DNA of 64,000 nucleotides from an uncultured Methanomicrobiales archaeon. Its GTDB lineage: Archaea; Halobacteriota; Methanomicrobia; Methanomicrobiales; JACTUA01. The stretch is from assembly GCA_964551875.1 (NCBI GenBank), contig CAZKEV010000001.1:11303-75302 (forward strand). Direction: 5' to 3'. The notes below the pieces were generated by a model that did not search any database, was not told the origin of the DNA, and worked only from the letters and a program-made list of their open reading frames with translations. Shown here piece by piece: positions 5,842-62,257 of the stretch; position 1 is the first letter of the stretch; each line of letters begins with the position of its first letter. The translations under genes and the position numbers were made by a program.

Positions 5842-5911
5842 GTCTTTCCCAGAGGTAAGATCATCAACCCATTTTTTGGATCATTTTCAGGGGATCCCTC
5901 TCCGACCTACC

Positions 5912-7923: not shown

Positions 7924-7964
7924 AGGTTCGGATATACCCCTTGAAAAAATAAAAAGCTGTCTGT

Positions 7965-9335: not shown

Positions 9336-9381
9336 CCTTACTCACGCCTCCTCACCAGTTCGAAATAAGACCCTCCTCTCA

Positions 9382-10782: not shown

Positions 10783-10839
10783 CCTTACTTACGCCTCCTC
10801 ATCAGTTCAAGTCACCCAAGAAAAAATAAGATCTATCTC

Positions 10840-41540: not shown

Positions 41541-43124
41541 TTGGAGCTGAAGCATCATATGCGGATTAACGATATCATACCGCAGCTGGGGCAATTCCAT
41601 ACTCTCAATACGCAACAAGAAGAGAATCTTGGAAGGTTGATTGAAATCTCAAAGACTTTCAGTGAAGAAGCAGGTATTCCCTTTTTTCATTCCGCACCTG
41701 TCAATAACAGGACGATTGTTCTTGAGTCCGGTCACCAGCCAAACTTCTTACCCTACCCGGGGGTCTGGAAGAAGGCATTCCTTCTGGATTATATCCGGAG
41801 GCATCTCCACGAACTTGGTATGGATGCAATCGCCGTCTTCGGATTCGCTGATTACAACCTTTCGACCGCCTCATATCTCTTCCGGAACCAGGTCCCGGCC
41901 TTCAATAAACAGGGGAGTGAAAATATCGGGTTTAAAACCGCGGAAAAGAATCGCTGGAGATGTTTCCATACTCTGGAGAAGCCATCAGAAGAACGATTCC
42001 TGGCCGAGATGGAGAAAATAAAGCGGTTTTATGAGGAGAATGCAAAAAATCTGAACTCAAACAGAGAGATGATTGGATACCGAACTGAACAGCTGACGGA
42101 TCTCCTCCAGAGAAGTTACGAACGGGCCCGAAGCTTCTCGGGGATGAATGCCACGATCTTTGCCGGGATATGTACTGAAATCTTAGACCTTGATATCCTC
42201 TTTTTCCGATATACGGATCTCCAGAAGAACTGTCTTTTTATTGAATGCTCGCAGCAGATTCTCAATGATATCGAGAGATATAATTCTGTTTATCATCTTT
42301 CCGCCTCCTCTCACCAGACTGGCGTCCCACCCCCAGAAAAGGGAGACGTTCCTTTCTGGTATCACTGTGAATGTGGCGGGAAGGTCCACCTCATGATCGA
42401 TGCATCCTCTAATTTCATCGGAAAATGTCCTGTGTGCGAGAAAGAACATCGCATCTCCATGGGGCCCGAATATACAAATCTCGCCGAGAGATATCCCCGG
42501 ATGAGCCCGAATGCCGTTGCACGGAATATCATATTCGCCGAAGGTCTGGGAACTACCCTCTTCATATCCGGTGTCGGCGGCGGGCTTCATTATGGCCTGA
42601 TTGCAGATGCCATATCCCGGGATATGAATATTCACCGCCCCCTGACGCTCGCATGGCAGTCGAAGGATCATTACCTCGGGGTCGTGCACCAGGTTGCGCT
42701 CAAGGAACTGTTGCGGACCTTCCGTCTTACACCAGCAGACCTTCTCGATCCTGGAATAAGCCGGAGAATCGGTGAAATACGGTCTGCCCTTCTTCAGCAG
42801 GTCAAGGAAATGCAGGAGAACGGAGGCGATAAAAAGGAGATCCAGAGACTGGAAGGCAGGTTCCTGAACTCCGCGGTGCAGGCTGCAACGGTGAAGAAGA
42901 TATTTTCCTCAAACCCATCAGTTCTTGATCTCCTGGTCACCTGCGATGCGAAACAAATCTCGAAACAATGGAATACAGGGGCTTCGGAAGCAGAGATCAT
43001 TCACGAGGATCATCTCATAAGGATGCATGGTGATGTACTCTACCCATGCACTCCTGAATCCCCCGTAGCTCCAGATATGATCCCTGAAGTGTACAAGACA
43101 ATGGTATCGATTGAGGTTAAGTGA
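41541..43124 (+). CDS. Uncharacterised BshC-like / class I aminoacyl-tRNA-synthetase-fold protein with Zn-ribbon motif
   Basis: VLESGHQPNF, FGFADY, YHCECG...KCPVC, MSPNAVAR, FISGVGGGLHY. Family call is inference. Confidence 0.5.
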   Translation: MELKHHMRINDIIPQLGQFHTLNTQQEENLGRLIEISKTFSEEAGIPFFHSAPVNNRTIVLESGHQPNFLPYPGVWKKAFLLDYIRRHLHELGMDAIAVFGFADYNLSTASYLFRNQVPAFNKQGSENIGFKTAEKNRWRCFHTLEKPSEERFLAEMEKIKRFYEENAKNLNSNREMIGYRTEQLTDLLQRSYERARSFSGMNATIFAGICTEILDLDILFFRYTDLQKNCLFIECSQQILNDIERYNSVYHLSASSHQTGVPPPEKGDVPFWYHCECGGKVHLMIDASSNFIGKCPVCEKEHRISMGPEYTNLAERYPRMSPNAVARNIIFAEGLGTTLFISGVGGGLHYGLIADAISRDMNIHRPLTLAWQSKDHYLGVVHQVALKELLRTFRLTPADLLDPGISRRIGEIRSALLQQVKEMQENGGDKKEIQRLEGRFLNSAVQAATVKKIFSSNPSVLDLLVTCDAKQISKQWNTGASEAEIIHEDHLIRMHGDVLYPCTPESPVAPDMIPEVYKTMVSIEVK

Positions 43125-43762
43125 TGGCGCGCAAAATCCTCATCATAAGCCCGCACACCGATGATGGAGAACTCGGTTGCGGGGGATCCGTCGCCCGGTT
43201 TGTTGAAGAAGGGGACGAGGTTTCATATGTTGCTCTCTCGTCCTGTGAGAAATCCATCCCTCCGGAATATCCCTGCGACATCCTGAAGCAGGAGGTTAGG
43301 AATGCCACCCAGGTTCTTGGCATCACCGAACCGGTCCTCTTCGAGTTCGAGGTCAGGGAATTTCCCAGGCTCAGGCAGGAGATTCTCGACACCCTCATCT
43401 CTCTCCGGAACGAGATCCGGCCGGAGATCGTCTTCACTCCTTCCTCCTTCGATACCCATCAGGATCACAAGACCACCCGTGAAGAGACCCTCCGGGCCTT
43501 CAAGCAATGCACAATTCTCGGTTACGAGCAGCCCTGGAACAACATAACTTTCAACACCCTTGCGTTCATTTCCCTGAAGGAACACCATATACAGAAAAAG
43601 ATCGAGGCGCTCGGGTGTTACAAGACCCAGAAACACCGGGCATATCTCTCGGGTGATTTTATTCGAGGCCTCGCACTGACCCGGGGTGTCCAGATCGAAG
43701 AGAAGTATGCAGAGGCATTCGAGGTGATCAAGTGGGTCATGAGGTTATCGGGTGAGTCATGA
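43121..43762 (+). CDS. PIG-L/LmbE-family deacetylase
   Basis: ISPHTDDGELGCGG, DTHQDH, AEAF; overlaps neighbours by 4 nt. Confidence 0.9.
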   Translation: MMARKILIISPHTDDGELGCGGSVARFVEEGDEVSYVALSSCEKSIPPEYPCDILKQEVRNATQVLGITEPVLFEFEVREFPRLRQEILDTLISLRNEIRPEIVFTPSSFDTHQDHKTTREETLRAFKQCTILGYEQPWNNITFNTLAFISLKEHHIQKKIEALGCYKTQKHRAYLSGDFIRGLALTRGVQIEEKYAEAFEVIKWVMRLSGES

Positions 43763-44850
43763 AATTGCTCATTGATGTGGCCCACCCGGCTCATGTACAC
43801 TTTTTCAAGAATTTCCTCGGCGAGATGAGATCCCGGGGCCACGAGATTCTCGTCACCGCGAGGGACAAGGAGGTCACCCTTGCCTTACTTGATAAATACG
43901 GCATTCCATACATAAACAGGGGGTCGATCCAGAAAAGCGTCCTGAAGAAAGCCCTCTCTCTCATCAGGATCGATGCAAAGCTGTGGAAGATCGCCAGGGG
44001 ATTTCAACCGGATCTCTTCCTTGGTATCCACAACCCCTACATTGCCCATGTCGGAGCGGTGATGAGAAGACCCTCGATCATCTTCACCGACACCGAGGGA
44101 GTGAAGGTGGCGAGCATGCTCACCTATCCCTTCGCAAGCGCCATCTGCACTCCGTCGTGTTTCCGGGAGGTCCTCGACCCGAGGAAACATGTCAGGTACA
44201 ACGGCTACAAGGAACTCGCGTATCTCCATCCATCGCGCTTTACTCCACGGGAGGAGGACCTCGGGGACATTGGGCTCTCGAGATCCGACGATTTCATCGT
44301 TTTGCGCTTTATTTCATGGGGCGCGATCCATGACACTTCCCTGAAAGGGATTCAGAGTGGTTCTGAGCTGGAGTTCATCAGGGCACTCGAGGAGTACGGG
44401 AAGGTGCTTCTCACCTCTGAACGTCCCCTTGCAGGGGATCTGGAGAAATACAGGGTTCGGATTTCACCCGAAAAGATCCATTCCCTTCTCTCCTTTGCAC
44501 GGCTCTATATCGGCGAGGGTGGGACGATGGCGACCGAGGCGGCAGTCCTGGGGACGCCGGCGATCCATATTGAATCGACGGGAACGGGCCAGGCGACCGG
44601 TGAGACCTCCGGGAATTTTCTTGAACTCAGGGACAGGTACCACCTGCTCAGATTCTTCCCCGATCAGTACAGGGCACTTGATGAGGCTGTTGGAATACTC
44701 AAAAATTCAGAATCGAAGAGCGAATGGAAGAATAAACGCGAGTTGCTACTTCATGAGAAAATTGATGTCACAGCCTGGATGACCGATTTCGTCGAAAGAT
44801 ACCCTTCGAGTTTTCATGAATACCAGGGCACCGGTGGAATCGGGAGATGA
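43759..44850 (+). CDS. DUF354-family GT-B-like protein
   Basis: DVAHPAHVHFFK, VTARDK, FTDTE, YNGYKELAYLHP, GEGGTMATEAAVLGTP. Confidence 0.88.
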   Translation: MKLLIDVAHPAHVHFFKNFLGEMRSRGHEILVTARDKEVTLALLDKYGIPYINRGSIQKSVLKKALSLIRIDAKLWKIARGFQPDLFLGIHNPYIAHVGAVMRRPSIIFTDTEGVKVASMLTYPFASAICTPSCFREVLDPRKHVRYNGYKELAYLHPSRFTPREEDLGDIGLSRSDDFIVLRFISWGAIHDTSLKGIQSGSELEFIRALEEYGKVLLTSERPLAGDLEKYRVRISPEKIHSLLSFARLYIGEGGTMATEAAVLGTPAIHIESTGTGQATGETSGNFLELRDRYHLLRFFPDQYRALDEAVGILKNSESKSEWKNKRELLLHEKIDVTAWMTDFVERYPSSFHEYQGTGGIGR

Positions 44851-46478
44851 TCTCCTTTCATCACCGTTCCAGTGATTCCTATGGTACTTACGGTATAGAG
44901 CATTTTTTCAGAAAATACGGTATCCCTGTTGACGTTAACCCCCCACAACCATCAAGGGTGAGCATTGGTTACGGGATAAGAAGCCCAGGCGAGAATTTTA
45001 GTATACTGATCCGCGAAAACGAGATCCTGGACGGGATAACGGGATCTCTGGAGGCACAGGGAAAAAAGGCCCCTCTCTTCGAGGTCCCTTCCGATACCGG
45101 TGATGACGGCCTTCCCCTGGCCTTCTATTCGTCAGGAGCTCTGAAATATCCCTGTATGAGTGTGACCGAGGCCGGAATTATTATCGGATTTGACCTCTTC
45201 AAGGAAACCGGACGCATTCTTTCCGGTTCTTTGGATAAGGTCAGGGAAAAACAGGGCACTTCTGACCCGGATCCGTTTACTTCCGTCCCTCTGGTTGATT
45301 TCTACGAATCGCAATTATTCGATGCAATCCTCCGTGCCTACAAGAGAGCCGAGATCCCCCTCGTTCTGGTACCCTTCTGGCCTGACGGGAAAAAGTTCGC
45401 CGTCTGCCTGACCCATGACGTGGATGAGGTGAAAAAAACTTATCAGTGGCTGACGTATCCGGTAAAACTGATTAAAAGAGGTAATTTCAAAGGCCTGACA
45501 CATCAGTTTTCTTCATTATTCAAGAAACTGAGGGGTAAGGAACCCTACTGGACGTTTGATGAGCTGATTCCTCTCGAAGAACGGCTGGGGGTGGTTTCAT
45601 CCTATTTCTTCCTGCAGGAAAATGCCAGGGTCCGAGTGCAGGAAAGGAAAACATGGAAACACATGGGAAGGCGTTATCGATTGGATGACCCGGCAGTGAA
45701 ACAGGTACTTGAAACTCTTCAATTAAAGGGGCACGATATCGGGCTTCACGGGTCTTATGATTCCTACCTTGATGCGGCGTTGCTCTCAGAGGAGAAGAAG
45801 GAACTGGAGAAGATTCTCTCCGGGCATGTTTATGGAACGAGGCAGCACAATCTGAACTTCCGTTTTCCTGATACCTTATTGATCCAGGAAAAGGCTGGTC
45901 TTCTCTACGACTCCACCCTGGGCTTTAACAATACCCTCGGATTCCGCTGGGGAACATGTTTTCCCTTCTATCCTTTCGATCCGAAGGACCAGCGCGGATT
46001 GAACATCCTTGAAATCCCTCTGGTCATCCAGGATACGGTCTTTTTCAGGTATCAGGATCCATGGGGCGAATTTTTAAAACTGGTCAAGGAAATCCAGTCG
46101 TATCAGGGGGTTCTTACATTGCTCTGGCATCATGCGGTCTTTAATGACGATGAATTTCCCGGGTGGGGCCCCCTCTACAGCAGAATCATCGAGTTCTGCA
46201 AACAACAGGGTGCATGGGTTACGAATGGCAGGGAGATTGCGGAATGGTGGAAAGGGAGGGAGTCCATCCGAATAAAAGCTGAATTTGATGGATTTACCAT
46301 GAAAATCAGGCCTATTCCTGGGGATCATGACATCGCGATATATTTACCGGGACCATGGTCGGTGGAAAAAATCACAAATGCAGGGCTCGTGGAATTTGAT
46401 CACCAGATAATGGTAATCCGACCGGACGACTCCGCGGAAGGGAGTGGGATCGAGATACAATTTTCAGGGACCAAATAA
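44847..46478 (+). CDS. Polysaccharide deacetylase-family protein with N-terminal extension
   Basis: CLTHDVD, SSYFFL, GLHGSY, RQHNL, YDSTLG, LTLLWH. Confidence 0.88.
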   Translation: MISFHHRSSDSYGTYGIEHFFRKYGIPVDVNPPQPSRVSIGYGIRSPGENFSILIRENEILDGITGSLEAQGKKAPLFEVPSDTGDDGLPLAFYSSGALKYPCMSVTEAGIIIGFDLFKETGRILSGSLDKVREKQGTSDPDPFTSVPLVDFYESQLFDAILRAYKRAEIPLVLVPFWPDGKKFAVCLTHDVDEVKKTYQWLTYPVKLIKRGNFKGLTHQFSSLFKKLRGKEPYWTFDELIPLEERLGVVSSYFFLQENARVRVQERKTWKHMGRRYRLDDPAVKQVLETLQLKGHDIGLHGSYDSYLDAALLSEEKKELEKILSGHVYGTRQHNLNFRFPDTLLIQEKAGLLYDSTLGFNNTLGFRWGTCFPFYPFDPKDQRGLNILEIPLVIQDTVFFRYQDPWGEFLKLVKEIQSYQGVLTLLWHHAVFNDDEFPGWGPLYSRIIEFCKQQGAWVTNGREIAEWWKGRESIRIKAEFDGFTMKIRPIPGDHDIAIYLPGPWSVEKITNAGLVEFDHQIMVIRPDDSAEGSGIEIQFSGTK

Positions 46479-46613
46479 CTGCAATATTTGATAAACAGAT
46501 CAATTTATCTGATAAATAAATATAATATAAGAATAATACTATTTCTTAAAATATATAAAATATCGATGCGATATTAATTATGATCACAGACAAGAATTAT
46601 AGAACTGAGTCCG

Positions 46614-47633
46614 ATGATGAAATTTGAGATCCATGTTGCACAGGATAATGAAGCCGGTTTATGGGATCAGATAAATGACAGTTCTGCCCATGGATCCCCG
46701 TTTCATACGTGGAAGTGGCTGAAAATAGCCGAGCGACATTCAAATTCGAAGCTTGTTCCGATCATCGGTTTTAGGGATGACGAACCCCTGGGGATATTTC
46801 CCCTCTTTTTTGGGAAAAAATACTTCGTTCGATTTGTATTTTCTCCCCCTCCCCGTACTGCACTCCTGTACCTGGGTCCTGTTCTGGCCAATTATGATAA
46901 TCTAAGACAGGAACGAAAGGAGTACTTCTTTTCCGAGTTCCAAAGTAGGGTTGATCAATATATTACCGACTCGCTTTCCCCGGGCTATACCTACATCGCT
47001 CTTCCTTACGGGCTGTCCGATCCCCGCCCGTTCAAATGGTCAGGCTATTCCATCGGCCAGACGTATGATTATTCGACGAACCTGAATGGCAGTATTGATG
47101 ATGTCTGGCTGAGGTTCAAGCCCAAATTACGAAAGGATATAGATAGGGCGGAAAGAAAGGGAATCCACGCTGAAGAGGGTGGTAAAAAGGAGCTCGAGAT
47201 CATTTACGACCTTCTCGTGGAAAGGTATCGCGAACAGAACAGGGTTGTGAAGGTGCCTAAAAACTATCTTTTCGACCTCCATGATACTTTCCCTCAAAAT
47301 ATGAAGATCTTCGTGGCAAAATCAGATGACCAGATCATCACGGGATCGGTTGAAATCCTCCACCGGGATGCATTGCTGAGCTGGATAGGATCACCCAAGC
47401 CCAAAGATGAGAAGTATCAGTCCCCCAACGAGGTGCTCACATGGGAAATCATGAAATATTCTTATGAACATGGCCTGAAGAAGAATATCCAGCTTGGTAC
47501 TGCAGGGAATGAGAGATTGTCAAAATATTATTCGAAATTTAACCGGGACCTCAACGTGCGCTTTACAGCCAAAAAAACCACCCCGGTCACGAAAATAATG
47601 GAGATCGTGTACTGTTCGGTGCTGAGCCGGTAA
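46614..47633 (+). CDS. FemAB-like double-GNAT protein 1
   Basis: FHTWKWLKI, YLGPV, RKDIDRAERKG, PNEVLTWEIM, SKFN. Confidence 0.82.
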   Translation: MMKFEIHVAQDNEAGLWDQINDSSAHGSPFHTWKWLKIAERHSNSKLVPIIGFRDDEPLGIFPLFFGKKYFVRFVFSPPPRTALLYLGPVLANYDNLRQERKEYFFSEFQSRVDQYITDSLSPGYTYIALPYGLSDPRPFKWSGYSIGQTYDYSTNLNGSIDDVWLRFKPKLRKDIDRAERKGIHAEEGGKKELEIIYDLLVERYREQNRVVKVPKNYLFDLHDTFPQNMKIFVAKSDDQIITGSVEILHRDALLSWIGSPKPKDEKYQSPNEVLTWEIMKYSYEHGLKKNIQLGTAGNERLSKYYSKFNRDLNVRFTAKKTTPVTKIMEIVYCSVLSR

Positions 47634-47703
47634 AATCACTTTCGGGTCCTTATTCGATGGAGAATATTTCATTAACGTTCAGGGAAATATAATCTTAAAA
47701 CCT

Positions 47704-48711
47704 ATGGACATTGATTTGAAGATTGCCACTGAGGATGATTCCAAGGGCTGGGATGATATCGTACATTCCTCTCCGCACGGAACCATCTTTCACACCTGGA
47801 AGTGGCTCAAGATCGTTGAGAGGCACAGGGGCTGCACATTTTACCCGCTTATTGCGTACCGGGATACCTCTCTTTATGCGATATACCCGATTTTTCTCCA
47901 GAAGAAGGGTATTTTCCGAATCGCCCTTTCCCCCCCCTCCCATGCATACCTCCTCTACCTCGGGCCGGTCATTATCGACTATGAGAAGAAAAAGCAGGAT
48001 AAAAAGGAGAGCATTTTCATCGAGCTCCAGCGCGAGGTTGATAAATTCATTTTTGAGAGGATGAAATGTAGATATTCAAGAATACGCCTTTCACCCGGAT
48101 TAAACGATTCAAGGCCATTACAATGGAATAATTATACGGTGACCCCCCTGTATACCCTCCGGACAGGTCTTGGGATTGGCAAGGAGCAGATTCTCGAAAG
48201 ATTTGACAGGAAACTCCGGGTAAGCCTGAACCGGGCAATAAAGGAGGGAGTTGTCGTCCGAGAAGGAAAGAGGGAGGATTTGCTTCTGGTCGAGGAGAAC
48301 CTGACCCGGAGACGAAAGGATCAGAGTCTTCCATCGACCGATCACGTCGGATATCTCCTCGACCTGTATGATCATTTTCATGACAACATGAAAATATTCC
48401 TGGCATATCACCAGGATGAACTCGTGGGAAGCCTCGTGGCCCTCGTCTACAGGGATATCATGCACCTCTGGATAGGGACCCCGAAAAGCGAATTAAAAGG
48501 CGTATATCCCAATGATCTCGTCCAGTGGGAGGCGATGAAGTGGGCCTGCGACCACCAGCTCACCTATTTCGAAAGCATGGATGCCGGGGATGATCTCCGG
48601 CTAAGGGCGTACAAGTCAAAATGGAACCCCGATCCCCTAATCTGGTTCTCTGCAGAGAAATACTCCTCCCCGTTGTTCAGGATTGGAGAACGGCTTTTCA
48701 TGAAGAAGTAA
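47704..48711 (+). CDS. FemAB-like double-GNAT protein 2
   Basis: FHTWKWLKI, YLGPV, PNDLVQWEAM, YKSKWN. Confidence 0.82.
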   Translation: MDIDLKIATEDDSKGWDDIVHSSPHGTIFHTWKWLKIVERHRGCTFYPLIAYRDTSLYAIYPIFLQKKGIFRIALSPPSHAYLLYLGPVIIDYEKKKQDKKESIFIELQREVDKFIFERMKCRYSRIRLSPGLNDSRPLQWNNYTVTPLYTLRTGLGIGKEQILERFDRKLRVSLNRAIKEGVVVREGKREDLLLVEENLTRRRKDQSLPSTDHVGYLLDLYDHFHDNMKIFLAYHQDELVGSLVALVYRDIMHLWIGTPKSELKGVYPNDLVQWEAMKWACDHQLTYFESMDAGDDLRLRAYKSKWNPDPLIWFSAEKYSSPLFRIGERLFMKK

Positions 48712-49050
48712 GACACTGAAGACAGTGGTATGGTTTGATAACCATATCACTAAATCTCCCCTTTTTGAGGTTCTTTTCAGAAAAAACGAGCTTTATATAT
48801 CCCCAATAGGTTCTCATATAATATATTTCCTTGAGGATCATGCTCTCAAATTTTCGGCATCTGCCGAAGTCCCTCAAAATTAGAACCTTTTTAAAAAGCT
48901 TCAAAGCGAGGTAGGTTCCATATGAAACCATTTCCCATCCACACGAATTATGCCCGGGAACGCACCCGGGCCATGCCCGAGAAGATCAGGGCTCACCCAT
49001 GAGATACATCTGCTCTGGGGTGGGCTCCTAGGGTGCAGCATAACAATAAC

Positions 49051-49102
49051 GGCATTCCCATATCTCCGGATCCTCCGGGGCGAGGTGCGGGCCGATCCGC
49101 AC
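49051..49102 (+). repeat. Direct repeat, left copy, flanking the RlpA-SH3 gene
   Basis: GGCATTCCCATATCTCCGGATCCTCCGGGGCGAGGTGCGGGCCGATCCGCAC; 46/52 identical to 50784-50835. Confidence 0.85.
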
Positions 49103-49236
49103 GCAGTGCAGGGGATCAGAGGAGGATCGGATACCATGAAGAGGGGGAGGATATTTGGGTATGTCAGGGTTAGGTTAGGGGAGGGTGAAAGTGAGGGTAG
49201 TTTCATTCCCCAATATTCGGAATATAAAAAATTTGT

Positions 49237-50457
49237 TTAGGTCATTTTCTTCTTCATGACCACTACTGCCACCATTACTCCACCCAATATTGCTATGGGG
49301 ACCGTAACTGTCGGAAATTCAGGGACAGACCCTCCACCATCCCACCCAAGAGGGATGATCTCTCCTGTATTTTTAACCTGGATTCGATATGGACTGGAAG
49401 GAATATCTTTTACCTTACCAGATGCAAGTGTCAAGATTTGAATGTAATCAGACCCCGGAGGATCGTATAACGATTCTGCAAAGAGTGTGAAATCTGCATT
49501 TGGGTCGGCACCAGGCCTTGGTGTCATTGTAATTAGATAATCACCGGTTTTTAAACCTTTGAATTTAATACCCGCTTTAAGAACTCCATTTGATTCATAT
49601 TCGCTATATTCTGTTCCAGGAATCTGGTTGGTGAACTTTGATCCGATCAGTCCCTCGGGGTCCTCCACCGTAAAGTATGCCGGGCCATACACAATGACTT
49701 TTCCTCCGGCCCATAAGAATTCAACTGTTACCCAATCGTTATTAGTCATTCCAAGATCAGAGAATGTGCCATCGGCTAAATCAATTCCTGCAGGATTAGA
49801 GGGACTTCTTTTTTGTGCAGACCATCCGGAAGAACCGCTATCCCATTGAATTTTCCACCACGAGTATGTTATTCCACTAACAATACCCGTCTCTGGGCCG
49901 GAAATCACCGTACCAATATCGCTCGTGGATACCGATCCACTTTCGCTCCCACCAGGTGTTGTTCTGACTTTTAATCCATCAATAGTTGGGCGAACGCGAT
50001 CGTTTGTTTTCAATATATCCGAACCAGCAGAGGTTATGAGAAGATTCGTCTCATCAAATCCGCCGTTATAATCATTTAGATAAGCGGCTTGCGCTTCAGG
50101 AGTTCCTTGAGGAAGATCCTGCCACATTTCTCGTTCTTCGGGGAGGTTCCAATAGTCATCCCTTGTATTCCATGGTCCTGTATCCCATACAGGCGCCACA
50201 ACAGATTTTCCTTTGTAGGTCAGTCGTACTTGGAATCCATTCCCTCCATTACGACTTAGCACCGTCCTTGAAGGTAAACCCACGAAATGATCATTTGATT
50301 GGATAAGATGCCCATTTGCAGTTGTTTTTCCGACAAGACCTTCTCTAGTAGCATATACGGTGTAACTAACACCAGCATTAACAGGGAGAATTACCAACCC
50401 ACTAACTCCCAAAATAACAATTAAAATAAAAATAATTATGATTTCTTTTTTCTTCAT
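49237..50457 (-). CDS. PEF-CTERM surface protein: RlpA-like double-psi beta-barrel with inserted SH3b-like domain
   Basis: Signal peptide; GKTTANG, GKSVVAPVWDTGP, GIDLADG..DLG, VTVEFL match the RlpA pattern; aa about 148-216 LKVRTTPG...WWKIQWDSGSSGWSA are SH3b-like; tail VPEFPT + TM + KKKMT. Confidence 0.8.
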   Translation of the reverse strand: MKKKEIIIIFILIVILGVSGLVILPVNAGVSYTVYATREGLVGKTTANGHLIQSNDHFVGLPSRTVLSRNGGNGFQVRLTYKGKSVVAPVWDTGPWNTRDDYWNLPEEREMWQDLPQGTPEAQAAYLNDYNGGFDETNLLITSAGSDILKTNDRVRPTIDGLKVRTTPGGSESGSVSTSDIGTVISGPETGIVSGITYSWWKIQWDSGSSGWSAQKRSPSNPAGIDLADGTFSDLGMTNNDWVTVEFLWAGGKVIVYGPAYFTVEDPEGLIGSKFTNQIPGTEYSEYESNGVLKAGIKFKGLKTGDYLITMTPRPGADPNADFTLFAESLYDPPGSDYIQILTLASGKVKDIPSSPYRIQVKNTGEIIPLGWDGGGSVPEFPTVTVPIAILGGVMVAVVVMKKKMT

Positions 50458-50783
50458 CCTTGCATTCCTCCATGTTTCATTCTACCATCGAGAATTTCCA
50501 TAACCATCAGCCATATCAGCTCTCGCAGGTCCAGAAAGAATAGAACTCTGAAGTGTTAGACTGAGCGCTGAACGGAGCGAGAACAACCCCGCGAGCAACA
50601 GAGCAGTATCCCTCATGCTATATAAAACATGTTATATTTTCCACGGTTGAATACTTCATAAAAATGCAAAGATTTGGAATTCGATGCAGCTATCATAGTT
50701 TTTATATTACCTCTGGATAATAAAAAATTTTAACGGACTCCCTCCTAACACCACTGGTCCGATGTCTTCGGGCCATCAATACT

Positions 50784-50835
50784 GGCATTCCCATATCTCC
50801 GGATCCTTCGGGGCGAGGTGAGGACCAACCTGCAC
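50784..50835 (+). repeat. Direct repeat, right copy, flanking the RlpA-SH3 gene
   Basis: GGCATTCCCATATCTCCGGATCCTTCGGGGCGAGGTGAGGACCAACCTGCAC; only one mismatch to the left copy in the first 37 nt. Confidence 0.85.
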
Positions 50836-50980
50836 CAAGGACAAGGGAGCAGGTGCGGTCCATGAGGAGAGGGAGTATCATCCAAGGTTGCGTGGCCTGC
50901 TATGGCCATATACTGTTCGAATTAATGGATATTCTTGCATTACCATTAGGATGAGGATAACTAATTGGAATTTTTTTATG

Positions 50981-51088
50981 AGTGTGTGCGCACACTTTCT
51001 CTCATCCAATTCTTCTTACAAATAAACACGCATGAGAGAAATCACACAACAATTGCTCCGCCCCGTGCTTTGTTTCGTTGTGTGATTT
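50981..51088. other. Three interlocking inverted repeats upstream of GNAT gene 3
   Basis: AGTGTG/CACACT (50981-50996), TTTCTCTCAT/ATGAGAGAAA (50996-51041), AAATCACACAAC/GTTGTGTGATTT (51039-51088). Confidence 0.6.
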
Positions 51089-51133
51089 GCGCGTCTTCTT
51101 ATTTCAAAACATTAATATAAAGTTTTCTCGAAT

Positions 51134-52156
51134 ATGACACCAATGGAAGTTCGCCTCGCAACCGATCCGGATAGCCGGTTATGGGATGAGATTATTTCTT
51201 ATTCCCCCGATGCAGCAATCTTCCATACATGGAAATGGCTCAAAATAATGGAGAAACATTCGAGGAAAAGAGTTCTTGCAGGCCCTATAAAACCAGTTCT
51301 CTATCCCTTAATGATTTCCACCGAGGATGAAATTTTCAGTGTCATCCCGATATATCTCTTTGATGGGTTTTTCGGGAAGATGGCATATTCGCCTCCTCCG
51401 GCGGTCGAATGTGCATATTTGGGTCCGGTATTCAATAATTGCCAATCCCTCATACCTAGGGAACGATACCACCGTTTTTTTGAATTCCAGGCTGCACTCC
51501 ATGAATTTTTGGTGAAAGATCTCCATGCAAAAAAGATCTTCATCCGCACTCCCACGGGATTTGAAGATCCCCGCAGCTTCTCCTGGGGTTCCTATACAGT
51601 TGCCCCGAAATTCACTTATCTTTTGGATCTTGGGGGTGGAGAAGAGTTCCTCTGGAAGAACCTCCGGAATACCGTAAAGAAATCCATCAGGAGGAGTGAA
51701 AAAGTTGGCATCGAATTTCTCGAGGGAACAAAAGAGGATCTCGAACCGCTCTTTCGCTTAATGAAGGAGAGGAAGAGAACAAGGGCATTGATGAAGTATT
51801 TCCAGGAGATCTATGATGCGTACAACCCCCAGAATGTGCGGATCTTCACAGCCAGCCACCAAGGGGAAATCCTGAGCGCCCTCGTTATTACAGTCTTTAA
51901 AAATAGGGTATCCTCTTGGTTTGGAACACCACGGATGTCGTACAAAGGGGTGTCGCCAAACGAATTCCTCCACTGGCATCTCATCCAGTGGGCCATCGAA
52001 CAGGGCATGGAGTGCTTTGAACTTGTAGGGGCCGATGATTATCCCTTATTTGCCTTTAAAAACAAGTTTAATGCCACGCTGGCACTCAATTACCGGCTGG
52101 AATGGAATTCTCCGGGATTCCGGGTCATCGGCATGTTATATAATATGCTAAAATAG
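51134..52156 (+). CDS. FemAB-like double-GNAT protein 3
   Basis: FHTWKWLKI, YLGPV, KKSIRRSEK, PNEFLHWHLI, FKNKFN. Confidence 0.82.
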   Translation: MTPMEVRLATDPDSRLWDEIISYSPDAAIFHTWKWLKIMEKHSRKRVLAGPIKPVLYPLMISTEDEIFSVIPIYLFDGFFGKMAYSPPPAVECAYLGPVFNNCQSLIPRERYHRFFEFQAALHEFLVKDLHAKKIFIRTPTGFEDPRSFSWGSYTVAPKFTYLLDLGGGEEFLWKNLRNTVKKSIRRSEKVGIEFLEGTKEDLEPLFRLMKERKRTRALMKYFQEIYDAYNPQNVRIFTASHQGEILSALVITVFKNRVSSWFGTPRMSYKGVSPNEFLHWHLIQWAIEQGMECFELVGADDYPLFAFKNKFNATLALNYRLEWNSPGFRVIGMLYNMLK

Positions 52157-52231
52157 ATATCCATCCTCTCAAAGATCAGGAATAGTTACAAATACAATGA
52201 GCAGGGTACTGATAATACTCTAGTTGATCCT

Positions 52232-55200
52232 ATGCCCAGATACTCCCGCTGGGTCAGCAGGTCCCTGATCCTCTTGTCCCTTGTGATCACGGTCCTGCTC
52301 ATCTTTCCAGTCGATGCCCAGACCCATCCATCGTTGCTCTTCAATGATATCAGGGATACGCCGGGCTACCAGCACCGGACCACGGCTCCGTGGAGTGATT
52401 ATGAATCCTCGATCATCAGCTATGCCGATGATTATCTGTCCGTGGACTTCTCCAGCAGTAGCCTGAGTCAAAGCACCCGGGCTGATGACGCCCAGGATCT
52501 CGGTCTCGCCTACCAGATCACCAAACAGCAGAAGTATGCCGATGCGGCCCGGTGGGCTCTCCTTAACATCACGCCTCCGCAAGCCGGCCGTGATAACCAG
52601 GAGATGAACTCCCTGCGGGGCTACGCCCTTGCTTATGACTGGATACAGACCACCCTCAGCGCGGCGGATAATGCTACCATAAGGGACAAGATGGCAATAG
52701 TTACCGATCAGGTGTACAAAGATCTCAATAAAAACGGTGCCTATCGGGGGGTCATCCAGTTTGCCGACTACGATGGACAGGCCTACCCGGCAGTCGGGAT
52801 CATGGGGTGCGCCCTCTCCGACTACACCAACCCCCTCTCCCTCTCCTCCACGCCAGCCGACTGGCAGAAGGTGGGGACCGACTACCTCTTTGTTGACGAT
52901 AGCGTGCTCCATGACACCGGTGGCCGGTCCATGTTCAGCTTCGGGTTTGACGAGGCATCCGGAAAACACCTGAACGGCGCCTACAAGTTCTATGTGAGCG
53001 ACTCGTTCCTCTGGTGGTTCCAGGTCTACAGCCACTTCAAAGGGACGAACATCCTCGGGGTCTACCCCGCCGCCAGGCGGGCCTTCACCTCTGAGCTCTG
53101 GGAGTCAATGCCCAACTATTACAGCAATAACTATGTTACCCTGGGTAACACCCTCTGGGATTACCCGCTGGGGCTCCTCAACCTCTATGATCCCGATACA
53201 AGAGCCCAGGTTCTCAACTACCTTGACCATGTCCAGAGCACCTCCTTGCTCCCCTACTCACGTACTTTCAGTTCACCCTCCAGCCGGCTCCTCTACCTCG
53301 TCTACCCGGACACCAGTGCCATGCCCCGCACGACTCCCTCCTCTACGAGCCACCTGGATCCGAACGCCATCTACCAGGTATTCCGGGGGAGCTGGGCCGA
53401 GGACTCCGATTGGCTCTCCCTGGTCACCTTCAATGTCAATACCTGGAGCAACCGGGACAGAATGCATCACGACCAGCTGGGTATTGAGTATTATAGCAGG
53501 GGCGACCTGCTCCTCGCCGATGCAGGAGAGGATAAGCATGTACAGGATGCGTACTATGGCGACTTTGAGATCCATCACAATACCATCGCCCTTGAAAATC
53601 CCAGATCCCCCTTTTCTCTTGCGGCCTGGTCGAATAGCCCGGCGCGCGGTATTTTTAAAGGGGATACGAGCGGTATCACGACACCGGTCACCATAGATAC
53701 CCTCGTTCAGACTTCATGGGTGGAGATGCTTGCAGGGCGGGCTACCATTACTGAAGTCATCGGGAATGGTTGGTCGGATTATTATACCCTCTCACCCTCC
53801 GTTCAGTTTTCCCGATCCATACTCTATCCCAGCAGGGATTACTTTATCCTCATCGACCGGCTGCAGGGAAGCGAGACCTGGACGTATCGGAATATCTTCC
53901 GTCCCACCAGCCTCTCTATTACCCCCACATCAGGCTCAACGGTCGGGAATGTCCAGGGAAGCCTTACCTTGGGAGGAACTCTCTTCAACTGGCTGGGCCT
54001 TGACTACAAGAGAGAGACCTCCACTGGCATCACTACGAACTCCCTGAAATGGACGACCCGGAACCCCTATGGGGACAATGTCAACCTGGAAGTCTTCACC
54101 AGCCCGGCCTCCGAGGTTTTGGTCACCAAGCACGTGGGGAGAATTGCGGGATACGACGAGAAGAATGAGGTGTACTCACCGATTATCTCCTTCCGGACCC
54201 CTTCGGTAAATAACCTCTACCGGGTCACTGTACTCCTTTCCCGCTATGACTCTGAAACTGCGAAGGAGCCATCGGAGCTTGTGGTGACCGGGCTGGGTTC
54301 CGCCGTAAAGGTGCATAATACAACATTTGACGACTATATCTATGCTGGCAGCGGTTCATCATCATTCGGACCATTCTCTACCGATGCGGAAACGGTCTAT
54401 ACACGCGTAACCACTCGACCTGTCAACTACACCATGGCTGGCGGGAGTTATCTGAACTTTTCAGAGAGATCATTCCTGCGAGTTTCCGAGAATATCGACT
54501 GCCTCGCGGCAACAGAAAAGGCCGACCGGATATCGTTGTACATAAAGAGCGGATCGCCAGGTTATACCATATCCCTCTTCCAGCTTCAGCAAAGTGTAAC
54601 CGGGGTCACGATAGATGGTATTCCCTCTGCATCTTGGACAAATACTGGTGATACCATGACATTTACCGCTACCCAGGGCGCACATCTTGTGGATATCCTC
54701 ACTGCCCCGTTCCCGAACCGGCCCCCGAGCCTCGATCCCATCGGGAACAAGACCGTGACTGCTGGATCCCCGCTCGCCTTTACCATCAGTGCGACGGATC
54801 CCGATGGGAATGCTCTCACGTATTCAGCAGCCGGGCTCCCCTCAGGGGCAATATTCGATGCTTCTTCGAGAACCTTCACCTGGACCCCTGCAACCTCCCA
54901 GAATGGGTCCTACCAGATGAAATTCACAGTATCAGATGGATCACTCACCGATGACGAGACCATCTTCATTACGGTTCTTCGGGTTGGTGCCCCCCCGAAC
55001 CAGCCCCCGAGCCTCGATCCCATCGGGAACAAGACCGTGACTGCTGGATCCCTGCTCACCTTTACCATCAGTGCGACAGATCCCGACGGGAATGCTCTCA
55101 CGTATTCAGCAGCCGGGCTCCCCTCAGGAGCAATATTCGATGCTTTTTCGAGGACCTTTACCTGGACCCCTGCAATCTCCCTGAATGGGTCCTATCAGAT

Positions 55201-55600
55201 GACATTCACAGTATCAGATGGATCACTCACTGATGACGAGACCATCTTCATCACGGTTCTTCGGATGGATGTCCCTACTTCTCCGCCGATCCCCCCCGAC
55301 TCCGGCTCGGATTCCATGGTTTTTAGCGTGGAAATAGTTACACCTCCCCCTGCAGAACAAACCGTTGTGAATAAAATTTCTGGAGAAAAAGCAGTAATCG
55401 AGACCGAAACACCTCCGGAAAAACAATTATCTACCACTACGCCCCGTTCAACCGTAACGGTTTCAGAATCACCAGGAGAACCTGCAATTGCACAAAAAAA
55501 TAATATTTTAACTGATTTTATAAGTAATTCGGGCATTTTGCCATCTCTCCAATATTTCGTGAATATTATACAGAAAATATTTTCTTTTTTTAAATTTTAA
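52232..55600 (+). CDS. Secreted heparinase II/III-like polysaccharide lyase-fold protein with two putative Ig domains
   Basis: Signal peptide; HPSLLF start of a helical toroid; AIYQVFRGSW...HHDQLGIEYYSRGDLLLADAG...HNTI; two NxPPSLDPIGNKTV...FTVSDG repeats; Ser/Thr/Pro-rich tail. Confidence 0.78.
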   Translation: MPRYSRWVSRSLILLSLVITVLLIFPVDAQTHPSLLFNDIRDTPGYQHRTTAPWSDYESSIISYADDYLSVDFSSSSLSQSTRADDAQDLGLAYQITKQQKYADAARWALLNITPPQAGRDNQEMNSLRGYALAYDWIQTTLSAADNATIRDKMAIVTDQVYKDLNKNGAYRGVIQFADYDGQAYPAVGIMGCALSDYTNPLSLSSTPADWQKVGTDYLFVDDSVLHDTGGRSMFSFGFDEASGKHLNGAYKFYVSDSFLWWFQVYSHFKGTNILGVYPAARRAFTSELWESMPNYYSNNYVTLGNTLWDYPLGLLNLYDPDTRAQVLNYLDHVQSTSLLPYSRTFSSPSSRLLYLVYPDTSAMPRTTPSSTSHLDPNAIYQVFRGSWAEDSDWLSLVTFNVNTWSNRDRMHHDQLGIEYYSRGDLLLADAGEDKHVQDAYYGDFEIHHNTIALENPRSPFSLAAWSNSPARGIFKGDTSGITTPVTIDTLVQTSWVEMLAGRATITEVIGNGWSDYYTLSPSVQFSRSILYPSRDYFILIDRLQGSETWTYRNIFRPTSLSITPTSGSTVGNVQGSLTLGGTLFNWLGLDYKRETSTGITTNSLKWTTRNPYGDNVNLEVFTSPASEVLVTKHVGRIAGYDEKNEVYSPIISFRTPSVNNLYRVTVLLSRYDSETAKEPSELVVTGLGSAVKVHNTTFDDYIYAGSGSSSFGPFSTDAETVYTRVTTRPVNYTMAGGSYLNFSERSFLRVSENIDCLAATEKADRISLYIKSGSPGYTISLFQLQQSVTGVTIDGIPSASWTNTGDTMTFTATQGAHLVDILTAPFPNRPPSLDPIGNKTVTAGSPLAFTISATDPDGNALTYSAAGLPSGAIFDASSRTFTWTPATSQNGSYQMKFTVSDGSLTDDETIFITVLRVGAPPNQPPSLDPIGNKTVTAGSLLTFTISATDPDGNALTYSAAGLPSGAIFDAFSRTFTWTPAISLNGSYQMTFTVSDGSLTDDETIFITVLRMDVPTSPPIPPDSGSDSMVFSVEIVTPPPAEQTVVNKISGEKAVIETETPPEKQLSTTTPRSTVTVSESPGEPAIAQKNNILTDFISNSGILPSLQYFVNIIQKIFSFFKF
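54713..55264 (+). repeat. Intragenic tandem duplication encoding two He_PIG-type Ig domains
   Basis: 54713-54982 and 54995-55264 are highly similar DNA copies with a 282-nt period. Confidence 0.9.
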
Positions 55601-55675
55601 TGCTTCACCCTCACGACGATACTCCTTCGATTCGGGCGCCGCCGGATCCGGCCTCTCTTCACCGGAGGAACGAGA

Positions 55676-56161
55676 GATAGCGTACCTTATGCATCATGGA
55701 CTATGGATAATAGCACCATGACCTTAACTCTTGGTCAGGGTGAAAACCAGTTTGATATTTCTACGATACCAGCACCCACCCTTACACCCACACCAACAGT
55801 TACCATAGCAACCACAACACCAACCTCTACCCCAACATCAGTCCCTCCAACCCAGAAGGAAGCCTCTAATGGAATGAGTTCCTCACCTGGACCCGAAGGG
55901 GGCGTGTCAATCTCTTCAGGGGAGATATCACCACAGAATGACAAACCTCATGAAATTGAAGCTGCCCAAACCCCGACGATAGAGATGGAATCCATCACGG
56001 GGACACCTGTCTCAATCCCACTCACGATCCCACCAACGACTCCCCCTCAGCGAGTGATACCAACAACTAGTGCTCAGGAACCTATTCCATCCGGTAATGA
56101 TGTTATTGTGGCCATCGAAATACTCAAATCCGGCTTTATATCCGGAATAGGACAAATATAG
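55676..56161 (+). pseudogene. Orphan C-terminal fragment of a further heparinase-like paralog
   Basis: In-frame DSVPYASWTMDNSTMTLTLGQGENQFDIS resembles DGIPSASWTNTGDTMTFTATQGAHLVDIL of the upstream protein; followed by a Thr/Pro-rich linker; no signal peptide. Confidence 0.6.
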
Positions 56162-56283
56162 AATTCTCTAAAAAATCTATGGCATTTTTAGATGCTTACT
56201 GACTTGAAGAGTTTTTCGTATCTTGTAATCAACTCAGAATACGAGAAATTATTTTATAAGGGAATATCTAAATAAAACATATT

Positions 56284-57060
56284 TTGATGGATGATAAAAA
56301 TCGAACAGCTTACTTGAGCGAGGAAATTGTTGATTATTACTCTTCCATGAATCACCTATATCCGCCAGAATTGAGGATATTAGGTAAATTCGAAGAGAAA
56401 TTACCATCGATGAAAATGCTTGATATTGGCGTCGGTGGTGGAAGAACAACACAATTTTTTGGCCAATTGGCATCGGCGTATATTGGAATAGATTATTCTC
56501 AAAAAATGATCGATGAATGCAGAAAAAAATTTGGGAACTCGTTAAAAATGAAATTTCAACAATGTGATGCAAGAAATATGGGAGTTTTTCCCGAAAATTT
56601 TTTTGATTTCATTTTCTTCAGTTTCAATGGTATTGACTATATGTCACATGAGGACCGGATCCAAACTCTAAAGGAAATCATAAGAGTGTGTAAAAGGGGA
56701 GGATATTTTTGTTTCTCTACTCACAATTTAGGTTTTATTGAAGAATTATTCAAATTTAAGGTAACCCTTAATCCAAAGACTTTTCTGAGTCGTATCTATG
56801 ATTTTATTCGCATACGGCTCGAGAATGAAGATCTTGAGGTTTTAAAAAGGAAAAATTATGCAATTATTTGTGATCAATCTCATAATTTCAAAATGACAAC
56901 GCATTACATCAGACCCATAGACCAGATAATGCAGTTGGAATTCATCGGGTTCAAGAAAATACAAGTTTATTCCTCAAATAATGGGGCTGATGTTACAAAT
57001 TACGAGGGTATCAATAATAATTCCTATGATCAATGGTTATATTTTCTTTGCGAAGCATGA
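56284..57060 (+). CDS. Class I SAM-dependent methyltransferase
   Basis: LDIGVGGGRT, IGIDYS, CDARNM, FSFNGIDY, GGYFCFSTHN; AT-rich. Confidence 0.88.
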   Translation: MMDDKNRTAYLSEEIVDYYSSMNHLYPPELRILGKFEEKLPSMKMLDIGVGGGRTTQFFGQLASAYIGIDYSQKMIDECRKKFGNSLKMKFQQCDARNMGVFPENFFDFIFFSFNGIDYMSHEDRIQTLKEIIRVCKRGGYFCFSTHNLGFIEELFKFKVTLNPKTFLSRIYDFIRIRLENEDLEVLKRKNYAIICDQSHNFKMTTHYIRPIDQIMQLEFIGFKKIQVYSSNNGADVTNYEGINNNSYDQWLYFLCEA

Positions 57061-57123
57061 TACTCAGCCAGTTCGATGAAAATTCAATGATTAACAATTC
57101 TCGAAATATTTCCTCTGAGATAA

Positions 57124-60933: not shown

Positions 60934-61251
60934 GTATCAAATTATAAAACTTATTGAACTGGGTAAAACCACAATGACCTATTCTATCTGGTATATTCTG
61001 CGATAGTTGCCCGAATAAATTTTCACAAAATCCACCTTCCCGGCAATCGGCAATCTTATCGTTGATACAACATTCTCCAAAATTATATCCCTGGCATGAA
61101 AATATTTATCGGGTTAATGCTCTGCATTAACTTCGCAATCCATATCGAAAAAGTTCTCTATTTAAATTCAATACAATTAAATAATAATAATAGAAAATAT
61201 CTGTAATAATCCCCTATGAAAGTAATTCGGGATATTAACGGGTAAACAAAG

Positions 61252-61794
61252 GTGGAAGATATGGAAGCCGATCAGAAACCATGCAATTTCGTAGCTTTTG
61301 AGGTCATCGACGCAACATTTCCGCATAAAACATTGAAAATGGAACTTGAAGGCTGTCGAAAAGCATGTAAAAAACTTGCTTTATCAATCGTATTACGTAT
61401 TCCAATTATTAATTCTTTTTCAATCTTCAAGTCCAGGCAGAAGAGAGCTTACCCGGCCTCTACAACTTCAAATATACCGGATCCCAACCTGAACTTGCAG
61501 CCTGGTGAGTTGGTTCTCATACGCCCGAGTGAGGAAATTTTTGCTACCCTGGATGAGAAAGGGAAATACAGGGGCCTGTTTTTCATGCCAGAGATGGTAA
61601 AATTTTGTGGAAAAAAATTCAAAGTATATAAGAAAGTCGAAAGAATCGTGCTCGAATCTACTGGAGAGATGCGAAAGATAATGAGTCCAACTGTCTTTCT
61701 TGAAGGCGTATATTGTGACGGTGAATTCCATGACGGGTGTGACAGGTCATGCTTCTGTTACTGGCGAGAGATCTGGTTAAAGAGAATTCAATAA
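61252..61794 (+). CDS. Conserved hypothetical protein with Cys-containing SH3-like barrel
   Basis: LQPGELVLIRPSEEIFATLD..G...GLFFMPEMVKFCGKKFKV...VYCDG...GCDRSCFCYWREIWL; start uncertain. Confidence 0.65.
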   Translation: MEDMEADQKPCNFVAFEVIDATFPHKTLKMELEGCRKACKKLALSIVLRIPIINSFSIFKSRQKRAYPASTTSNIPDPNLNLQPGELVLIRPSEEIFATLDEKGKYRGLFFMPEMVKFCGKKFKVYKKVERIVLESTGEMRKIMSPTVFLEGVYCDGEFHDGCDRSCFCYWREIWLKRIQ

Positions 61795-62257
61795 AAATGT
61801 CATCGTTACATTTTTTGTTGGCCTCGTTGCTCTGATATGCCATCTGAATAAGCCAATGTAGATTGAAGTATTTCTAAATCCGAAAAAAATAACAAAAATC
61901 TCTTTTCTCCCTGATAGTTTCACGGCCCCGAATAGGTAAAATTTTTTTGATCTGCTCTTTACACATTGCATCCAGTATATATTGATAAACATCTCACAAT
62001 AGCCTAAATAAATTAATCAGAATTCAATGTTAATGCATTGTCTAATTAGTGCATAATAAATTAGTTATCATATATATAATATATCCTATCAAGATCATGC
62101 ATTTTAAATGGTTTATATATCAAAGCAGACTATAATGGATGTTTTTAGAGTATTATAACCGTTTTAAATAGACATAAGCGAAAAGATATATTTATATATT
62201 ACCTACTTATAAAGCTAGGTATTTGACCGATAAATTTCAACACGGGGGGAACTTGTT

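Follow-up and report, generated by a model that had tools for sequence, protein, structure and literature searches.

Among the double-psi beta-barrel (DPBB) proteins, those of the MltA/3D group are lytic transglycosylases with a single catalytic aspartate on the equivalent strand, and the MltA barrel also contains an inserted domain. The catalytic domain with which RlpA acts as a lytic transglycosylase is its DPBB (PMC6895207). Archaea, too, encode bacteria-killing peptidoglycan hydrolases, as reported in 2025 (Strock et al., PMC12352652); such proteins are defined there by the presence of at least one peptidoglycan-cleaving and at least one wall-binding domain of Pfam, and the hydrolases tested are M23 peptidases (PMC12352652). 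Here we describe a gene located at positions 49237..50457 (minus strand) of a 64,000-nucleotide stretch of contig CAZKEV010000001.1 from an uncultured Methanomicrobiales archaeon (hereafter, the window). The product of this gene (hereafter, the barrel protein) had been predicted, from the sequence alone, to be a surface-anchored candidate antibacterial wall-lytic enzyme in which an RlpA-like barrel is interrupted by an SH3b domain. The analysis shows that the head of this protein belongs to a large bacterial family that is distinct from RlpA and shares its fold, and that the barrel is split by a nested domain which is probably SH3b-like.

Like the modular hydrolases of Strock et al., the barrel protein would represent bacterial-type, wall-directed modules in a murein-free archaeon, and in both cases the genes are horizontally acquired and domain-shuffled, encode a signal peptide and show a patchy distribution. 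In contrast to those enzymes, the barrel protein has no Pfam match, falls outside the definition given above and would be missed by a screen of that kind; it also differs in its DPBB fold, nested architecture and surface anchor, and is known here from sequence and a model. Given that archaeal wall hydrolases have already been described, the wall-lytic idea is less novel than the original prediction assumed; the large unannotated family and the domain nesting make the more interesting general point.

An unannotated family with a double-psi beta-barrel fold

The coding sequence is complete, encodes 406 amino acids and ends with a TAA stop codon at 49237-49239; the plus-strand frame over the same interval is closed by many stops. 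The same exact protein is present also on two independent short Logan contigs. That the open reading frame (ORF) is real, as originally predicted, is confirmed by a sequence database search that identifies more than 2,519 homologous proteins at E<=1e-3, far beyond chance, with the best non-self E-values ranging from 1e-94 down to ~1e-48.

The N-terminal barrel part (aa 29-136; 50050..50373, minus strand) contains, in this order, the motifs GKTTANGH (aa 43-50), FQVRLT (aa 75-80) and GKSVVAPVWDTGPWN (aa 83-97), and a highly conserved loop specific to the family, WNTRDDYW...PEAQAAY...YNGGFDE (aa 96-136; 50050-50172, minus strand). The C-terminal barrel part (aa 221-250; 49708..49797, minus strand) consists of NPAGIDLADG (aa 221-230), a short helix and WVTVEFLW (aa 242-249), in the same strand-helix-strand layout as RlpA IIDLS..AA..LG; D226 (49780-49782, minus strand), within NPAGIDLADG, is the candidate catalytic residue. 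All motifs quoted in the original prediction are present, in the quoted order.

When aa 29-262 are modelled with AlphaFold using 120 sequences (pLDDT 85, pTM 0.75), the local pLDDT is 87-98 for aa 29-128, 78 for aa 129-138 and 94-98 for the C-terminal barrel part. A Foldseek search of the PDB started with this module yields DPBB proteins as every meaningful match, namely the Streptomyces papain inhibitor (SPI; 5ntb is the top match, and SPI matches span 72-74 columns with a template modelling (TM) score of 0.43-0.46), PA4485, kiwellins and expansins. Among the BFVD models, the best matches are phage "Rare lipoprotein A(-like)" proteins (E 1.3e-4 to 9e-3), with alignments of 220-225 columns (TM up to 0.69, rmsd 2.2-3.7) that cross the insert and cover both halves of the barrel. 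The model of an insertion-free homologue (P0120; pLDDT 78) identifies kiwellins as the top matches (E 1.7e-3), PA4485 with a TM of 0.77 and the cyanophage A-1(L) hub 8kea, followed by SPI, cerato-platanin, GH45, expansins, loosenin and the VCP-N domain. Both PA4485 and the hub 8kea match the barrel of E. coli RlpA in sequence (E 1e-18 and 2e-11, respectively), and PA4485-like proteins bear PF03330 and are named RlpA-family transglycosylases. These fold matches are therefore true RlpA-family proteins, so that the predicted DPBB is supported at the level of fold, and the modelled head is best described as a DPBB of the RlpA/expansin type.

The three groups named for structural comparison in the original prediction fare differently. 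RlpA-type proteins are matched, whereas the expansin matches are weak (E 0.02-0.3, TM 0.2-0.35), the barrel protein having no CBM63 D2 domain and an unrelated stalk after the barrel, and MltA/3D proteins (YuiC, PF06725) are missing from the top 50 fold matches. The 3D domain has three conserved Asp, of which the second and third may be represented here by D92 and D226, as the order of the motifs suggests; the domain inserted in MltA is of another kind and in another position. Expansins (EXLX1), loosenins, cerato-platanins, kiwellins and SPI share the DPBB fold, with a groove in which an Asp or Thr is conserved, but the E-values are weak (1e-3 to 0.1), and the family loop and the invariant residues are unlike theirs.

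The resemblance to the septal lytic transglycosylases of the RlpA/PA4485 type (DPBB_1) extends beyond the fold to the order of the motifs, TA(S/N)G, a hydrophobic strand, V.D.GP, IDL(S/A), a short helix and a final strand, and to a conserved Asp on the penultimate strand. Unlike these enzymes, however, the barrel protein has a conserved loop of ~45 aa between D.GP and IDL, a His in place of the Glu of TASGE, and an 84-aa domain nested in the loop, and has neither a SPOR domain nor a lipobox. Searches of Pfam, NCBIfam and PDB sequences, with both the protein and the family profile, identify nothing for the head. Membership in the RlpA family proper is not supported: hhalign comparisons with either 2 or 122 RlpA sequences, with the family loop kept or excised, yield weak matches that never score above shuffled controls. 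With no Pfam match and no significant similarity to the RlpA profile, the head represents a distinct, unannotated family within the DPBB fold.

This family comprises more than 2,500 clusters, mostly from Streptomyces, Myxococcota and Chloroflexota. The taxa represented among the named members are Streptomyces ("SH3 domain-containing protein"), Myxococcota ("golvesin C-terminal-like"), Thermomicrobiaceae, Chloroflexaceae, Paceibacterota and Deinococcus; a search of names and literature turned up no characterised member. The original prediction had placed similar, insertion-free barrels in secreted actinobacterial proteins, which the database search bears out for Streptomyces, and the bacterial origin of the head module is likewise supported. 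The common core of ~150 aa starts with the consensus YxVYATREGLVGxTTANGHVI..DHFVALPS...YQVRL.Y.G..V.APVWDVGPWNT.DDYWNP...REMW.DLPQG.PEAQAAY..GYNGG.D.FGR.V. and ends with NPAGIDLADGTFW..LGM.DNDWV.V.FLW. Across phyla, the cores of the homologues are 57-71% identical to that of the archaeal protein. In the alignment of 120 sequences, 18 positions are invariant, 16 of these in the N-terminal part (T37, G40, G43, T46, H50, D56, F58, P62, G94, P95, N97, D100, W103, R109, P120 and A125), the other two being D226 and G230; at least 90% of the sequences retain D92.

Some members are fused to domains that act on, or bind, cell walls: SH3_3 is present in 15 of the 65 members examined, Amidase_6 in P0009, and two PG_binding_1 domains in each of P0052 and P0119. 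On the Deinococcus aetherius plasmid pDAETH-2 (NZ_AP026562.1, 401-406 kb), three consecutive genes encode proteins with two PG_binding_1 domains, one with a divergent domain of this family, one unknown and one an Amidase_2 MurNAc-L-Ala amidase. The divergent Deinococcus member is without TANGH, has VYEVGPWN and reads GIDLSPAAARRLGL, which is nearer to the RlpA wording. A scan of genome contigs with the family identifies six loci, all bacterial. In one of the contigs examined, from a Chloroflexaceae metagenome-assembled genome (MAG), two insertion-free paralogues are encoded in tandem (5833-6645 and 7002-8033), each with a signal peptide.

A nested, probably SH3b-like domain

The nested insert (aa 137-220, ~84 aa; 49798..50049, minus strand) lies inside the EFGR linker of the insertion-free homologues. 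Of the 120 best homologues, all but four have 7 aa (EFGRxVx) between NGGxD and NPAGID; the spacer is 85-86 aa in the archaeal protein, P0002 and P0003, and P0004 is likewise nested, as judged from its sequence. The predicted splitting of the barrel by an insertion is evident from this comparison. In a neighbour-joining tree, the four nested sequences are part of a small clade of ten. In 19 other members of the family, the barrel is directly followed by a domain homologous to the insert (e.g., P0007, with 43% identity and an E-value of 9e-14), which implies that the nested form arose by relocation of an existing partner domain into the EFGR linker.

The core of the insert (~aa 153-216) reads LKVRTTPGG ... 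GTVISGP ... WWKIQWD ... GWSAQ and displays the SH3b hallmarks LxVR.TPGG, GTV..GP, WWxIxWD and GWS; in the model, the insert forms six strands (pLDDT 62-89). The archaeal protein itself yields no match to SH3_3 (PF08239), but weak, sub-threshold matches are detected over the same domain in its relatives, in the C-terminal position in P0054 (E 0.028) and in the nested position in P0003 (E 3.4), both spanning positions 1-51 of the 54 in the profile. A search of BFVD identifies similarity of the insert to SH3 domains, CHAP proteins and the endolysin PlyB over 64-85 columns (E 0.2-0.6, probability 0.8-0.9), and the comparison of the insert profile with the PDB is marginal (spectrin SH3, E 0.38; an SH3b NMR domain, E 1.1). 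An hhalign comparison of the insert family with the SH3_3 domains of the Streptomyces type is not significant. Of the nested SH3b domain originally predicted, a beta-rich domain with SH3b hallmarks stands, and the label itself derives from motifs, the model and sub-threshold profile scores; the insert is probably SH3b-like.

The archaeal stalk and anchor

The features of the N-terminus (aa 1-28; 50374..50457, minus strand), with MKKKE, a hydrophobic core and the junction VNA/G, are those of a signal peptide; the sequence contains no lipobox Cys, and the Pfam search detects no SPOR domain, unlike RlpA, an outer-membrane lipoprotein in which a SPOR domain forms the C-terminus. The barrel is followed by a beta-rich stalk domain without a Pfam match (aa 251-375; 49333..49707, minus strand) and by a PEF-CTERM-like sorting signal (aa 376-406; 49240..49332, minus strand), in which VPEFP (aa 378-382) precedes 19 hydrophobic residues and the basic end KKKMT. 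A search of 1.84 billion representatives with the stalk and tail together (aa 251-406) identifies 163 homologues (E<=1e-3), most of which form the extreme C-terminus of large surface proteins; the tails of some examples consist of IPEFPS, a transmembrane helix and RRTREH. Elsewhere, the same module bears a Peptidase_M23 domain (P0268) or an Amidase_3 domain together with a Methanosarcina-type beta-propeller repeat (P0281). These domain architectures suggest that the archaeal stalk displays heads of the bacterial wall-hydrolase type more than once.

PEF-CTERM, the signal of archaeosortase C (ArtC), is treated in PMC5244752 and PMC9723798 in connection with ANME-2 and Methanosarcinales, not with Methanomicrobiales. 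The barrel protein shares with ArtC substrates the P-E-F motif, the transmembrane helix and the basic tail at the extreme C-terminus, but its tail scores 14.7 bits against TIGR03024 (E 0.028), below the curated cutoff of 23. Accordingly, the PEF-CTERM assignment holds as far as an archaeal-type anchor with all three motif features is concerned, and falls short at the family threshold; the protein could be either an ArtC substrate or carry a plain C-terminal transmembrane anchor. A systematic scan of the window finds a PEF tail in the barrel protein alone, and no archaeosortase gene was noticed in the window, where only the PEF tails were searched systematically. Because the protein is anchored, it would be expected to act at the cell surface or on contact, perhaps as an adhesin, and not as a diffusible bacteriocin.

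Elsewhere in the window, a 178-aa ORF (12802-13338, minus strand), overlapped by an ORF on the opposite strand, combines a signal peptide with a tail that resembles PGF-CTERM, VLPGFEIFGTCAGLLLASCIARRNGKR, which suggests that this genome also encodes a substrate of the archaeosortase A type.

Acquisition of the gene and a flanking dispersed repeat

The window encodes a PolB protein that is 84% identical to that of a Methanomicrobiales MAG and ~70% identical to those of Methanoculleus, Methanoregula and Methanolinea; judging from this sequence, the host is a member of Methanomicrobiales, as predicted. The composition of the barrel-protein gene (GC 0.43, GC at third codon positions (GC3) 0.34) contrasts both with that of PolB and PstCA (GC3 0.84-0.88) and with that of the genes around it (GC3 0.53-0.65). 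The two halves of the gene are alike in their low GC, and the gene is oriented against its neighbours. A GGAGG motif (50467..50471, minus strand), 9 nt 5' of the ATG, could serve as a Shine-Dalgarno sequence, and a run of six T (49226..49231, minus strand) just past the stop codon is a possible archaeal terminator.

The gene is flanked by two copies of a dispersed repeat that appears to be a decayed zinc-ribbon ORF of ~100-160 nt, one downstream (49044..49150, minus strand) and one upstream in direct orientation (50777..50875, minus strand), 1733 nt from the former. The copies are 82% identical over 76 nt, and there is no third copy in the window. The repeat occurs in 20 metagenome contigs (L015-L034) with varying flanks; in two of these, L018 and L029, pairs of the repeat likewise flank genes of secreted or membrane proteins. 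On the minus strand of the window, the consensus of the repeat encodes MATDPLVRCPACGSALTSPREDPEIWECRYCYAVFPVE, a zinc ribbon of the form CxxC-x16-CxxC, with sub-threshold Pfam similarity to Zn_ribbon_RPB9 (E 9e-5) and to Zn_ribbon_IS1595, a transposase domain (E 4e-4). A 1-nt deletion breaks the frame in both copies in the window and in about half of all copies, and Rfam identifies no RNA family at the repeat. The repeat could be a remnant of an insertion sequence (IS) or a marker of slots for variable surface genes. Att-like cassette sites were considered as well and rejected, the repeat being scattered in many contexts.

The contigs that encode the other nested variants (P0002-P0004) have a GC content of 40-50% and are 2-4 kb long, and the neighbouring genes are uninformative with regard to taxonomy. 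The GC content suggests that a lower-GC organism with PEF-type anchors probably assembled the chimera and then passed it on. The gene was acquired horizontally, probably already in the chimeric form and from a lower-GC archaeon, as far as its composition and relatives indicate; a high-GC actinobacterium is a less likely direct donor.

Proposed function and alternatives

In the proposed mechanism, the protein would be exported via its Sec signal peptide and held on the envelope of the Methanomicrobiales cell by the stalk, predicted to be a beta-sandwich, and the PEF-CTERM-type tail. The SH3b-like, putatively wall-targeting domain, which usually follows the barrel but has here been shifted into the loop that immediately precedes the strand with the Asp, could, together with the aromatic-rich loop, grip a glycan strand of the peptidoglycan of a neighbouring bacterium in the groove of the barrel. 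There, D226, aided by D92, T37 and H50, would either cut the strand, in the manner of a lytic transglycosylase, or loosen it, in the manner of an expansin. Since the protein is anchored, either activity would be exerted on contact. Indirect support for a peptidoglycan target comes from the fusions to PG_binding_1, SH3_3 and Amidase_6 and from the Deinococcus gene cluster with its amidase; conservation of the core, almost unchanged, in an organism without murein points in this direction too, by the logic used for the archaeal peptidoglycan hydrolases (PMC12352652). We infer a peptidoglycan-directed role of the head with a confidence that falls slightly short of even.

A more specific version of this proposal is possible but doubtful: the head would represent a new, widespread enzyme family with its own active-site loop, its own invariant set of His and Asp residues and a wall-glycan chemistry unlike that of RlpA and MltA, captured by methanogens, fused to an archaeosortase-sorted stalk and re-wired by nesting. 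The resulting contact-dependent device, used for killing, feeding on or docking to bacteria, would be one of several wall hydrolases (along with M23 and Amidase_3) displayed on that stalk. Should the head cut or grip peptidoglycan, Methanomicrobiales and a fold class missed by Pfam would join the archaeal anti-bacterial wall enzymes, and a very large, highly conserved secreted family of Streptomyces, myxobacteria and Chloroflexota would gain its first functional handle. The protein would also provide a natural example of a binding domain shifted from the end of a catalytic barrel into a loop of that barrel. For anaerobic communities, the surface-anchored form bears on how methanogens that consume hydrogen adhere to the bacteria around them or compete with these.

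Several observations weigh against a peptidoglycan-cutting head. The Pfam profiles DPBB_1 (PF03330) and 3D (PF06725) do not match the archaeal protein at E<=10 or any of 65 family members at E<=1. When the family core is compared with 122 RlpA sequences, hhalign yields a P-value of 0.016 and a probability of 2.9%, and pairs the N-terminal half only, TANGH with TASGE and VWDVGPW with INDRGPF. When the 43-aa family loop is excised, the alignment extends to place GIDLADG..LGM on IIDLS.AA..LGM and D226 on the RlpA Asp, but its score, 22.2, is no better than those of column-shuffled controls, which reach 27.3. The assignment of D226 as the RlpA Asp, made in the original prediction, accordingly draws no support from the alignment scores; from the motifs, the equivalence of D226 to the catalytic Asp of RlpA (in the IIDLS strand of the P. 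aeruginosa protein, the residue that we take to be D157) is plausible. Moreover, E. coli RlpA (fragments P0417 and P0418) reads VISLS, with a Ser at the Asp position, where the Pseudomonas PA4485-type proteins read IIDVS or IIDLS, so that the RlpA fold by itself is no guarantee of catalysis. SPI, kiwellin, cerato-platanin and expansins, which are among the nearest folds, are non-enzymatic, and the SH3b assignment is sub-threshold. Among the fusions in the family, those to peptidoglycan-binding domains are a minority, and those to CarboxypepD_reg and Golvesin_C are commoner. There is no conserved operon, the neighbours in Actinacidiphila and Corallococcus being DUF4097, GH8, trypsin, methyltransferase, PGA_cap and HipA genes. 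A search of phage genomes found no match to the family, and so gives no evidence of an endolysin origin. Finally, a membrane-anchored protein can reach only exposed walls, and the location of the gene within a glycan-biosynthesis island makes it possible that the protein acts on the cell's own glycan.

Some of these points would be accommodated by a non-catalytic adhesin or expansin-like binder, that is, a head that binds and perhaps loosens bacterial wall polymers and tethers the methanogen to syntrophs or other bacteria. The anchoring of the protein, which is not released, and the presence of expansins, loosenin, cerato-platanin and kiwellin among the nearest folds fit this possibility, and a conserved Asp is needed in the non-hydrolytic expansins too; hydrogenotrophic Methanomicrobiales rely on close contact with syntrophs. 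However, the set of 18 invariant residues, which includes several polar ones (T, H, D, N and R), and the high identity across phyla are more suggestive of an active site than of a surface for binding, and the family is fused to Amidase_6 and adjoins an amidase gene, so that a mere binder seems to us rather unlikely. The target might also be other than peptidoglycan, either a glycan of the S-layer or exopolysaccharide (EPS) produced by the island itself, or environmental chitin, cellulose or EPS. The gene lies in a surface-glycan island of mixed composition, amid three FemAB-like GNATs, PIG-L, DUF354, sugar epimerases and large surface proteins with Ig/cadherin domains; the GH45 endoglucanase and expansin folds are related to the barrel, one bacterial homologue adjoins a GH8 gene, and the Golvesin_C and CarboxypepD_reg partners are not specific for peptidoglycan. 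Nevertheless, the opposite orientation of the gene, its GC3, which is low compared with that of the nearby genes, and the flanking repeat suggest an independent insertion rather than a member of an operon, and the core is hardly altered from that of homologues in peptidoglycan-containing bacteria; we consider such a target unlikely.

The prominence of SPI at the head of the PDB list for the archaeal module, and of kiwellins at the head of the list for the insertion-free homologue, raises the question of a DPBB that binds proteins, as an SPI-like protease inhibitor or by kiwellin-like sequestration of enzymes, and shields the surface from bacterial proteases. Given that the SPI matches cover only 72-74 columns at low TM, whereas the RlpA-type matches extend over the whole barrel, and that the fusion partners are wall- and glycan-binding domains, this explanation is very improbable. 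A gene of extremely atypical GC3 with decayed zinc-ribbon repeats on both sides could also be a recently acquired passenger of the island, without an adapted function in this host; its product might be made in small amounts or, should archaeosortase C be missing from the genome, sorted incorrectly. The single PEF tail in the window, where no archaeosortase gene was noticed and the tail alone was searched systematically, is in line with this scenario. Yet the ORF is intact and retains every family-invariant residue, a plausible Shine-Dalgarno motif, signal peptide and terminator are in place, and two other sequencing runs yielded an identical protein, which makes a functionless passenger quite improbable.

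Other features of the window

The island of mixed composition extends over ~46000-62000, with a local GC of 35-57% compared with 55% for the window and with a GC3 of ~85% for housekeeping genes. It encodes three FemAB-like/Acetyltransf_6 paralogues (46614-47633, 47704-48711 and 51134-52156), one methyltransferase and two very large surface proteins. Just upstream of this island, the PIG-L (43121-43762) and DUF354 (43759-44850) genes have a higher GC. The presence of FemAB-type enzymes in a Methanomicrobiales glycan cluster hints at surface glycans modified with amino acids. A 453-aa ATP-grasp protein with weak similarity to RimK, LysX, MptN and Ddl-like enzymes is encoded ~20 kb upstream of the FemAB-like genes (22899-24260, minus strand), in the same window as the sugar epimerases.

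Two further groups of secreted proteins are encoded in the window. A 1122-aa protein (52232-55600, plus strand) matches He_PIG, Big_9 and Cadherin_5 and contains two near-identical repeats of ~95 aa, PPSLDPIGNKTVTAGS.L.FTISATDPDGNALTYSAAGLPSGAIFDA.SRTFTWTPA.... Three paralogous YVTN beta-propeller proteins of 456, 466 and 461 aa are encoded in tandem at 7965-12225 (minus strand), and their signal peptides and C-termini are almost the same.

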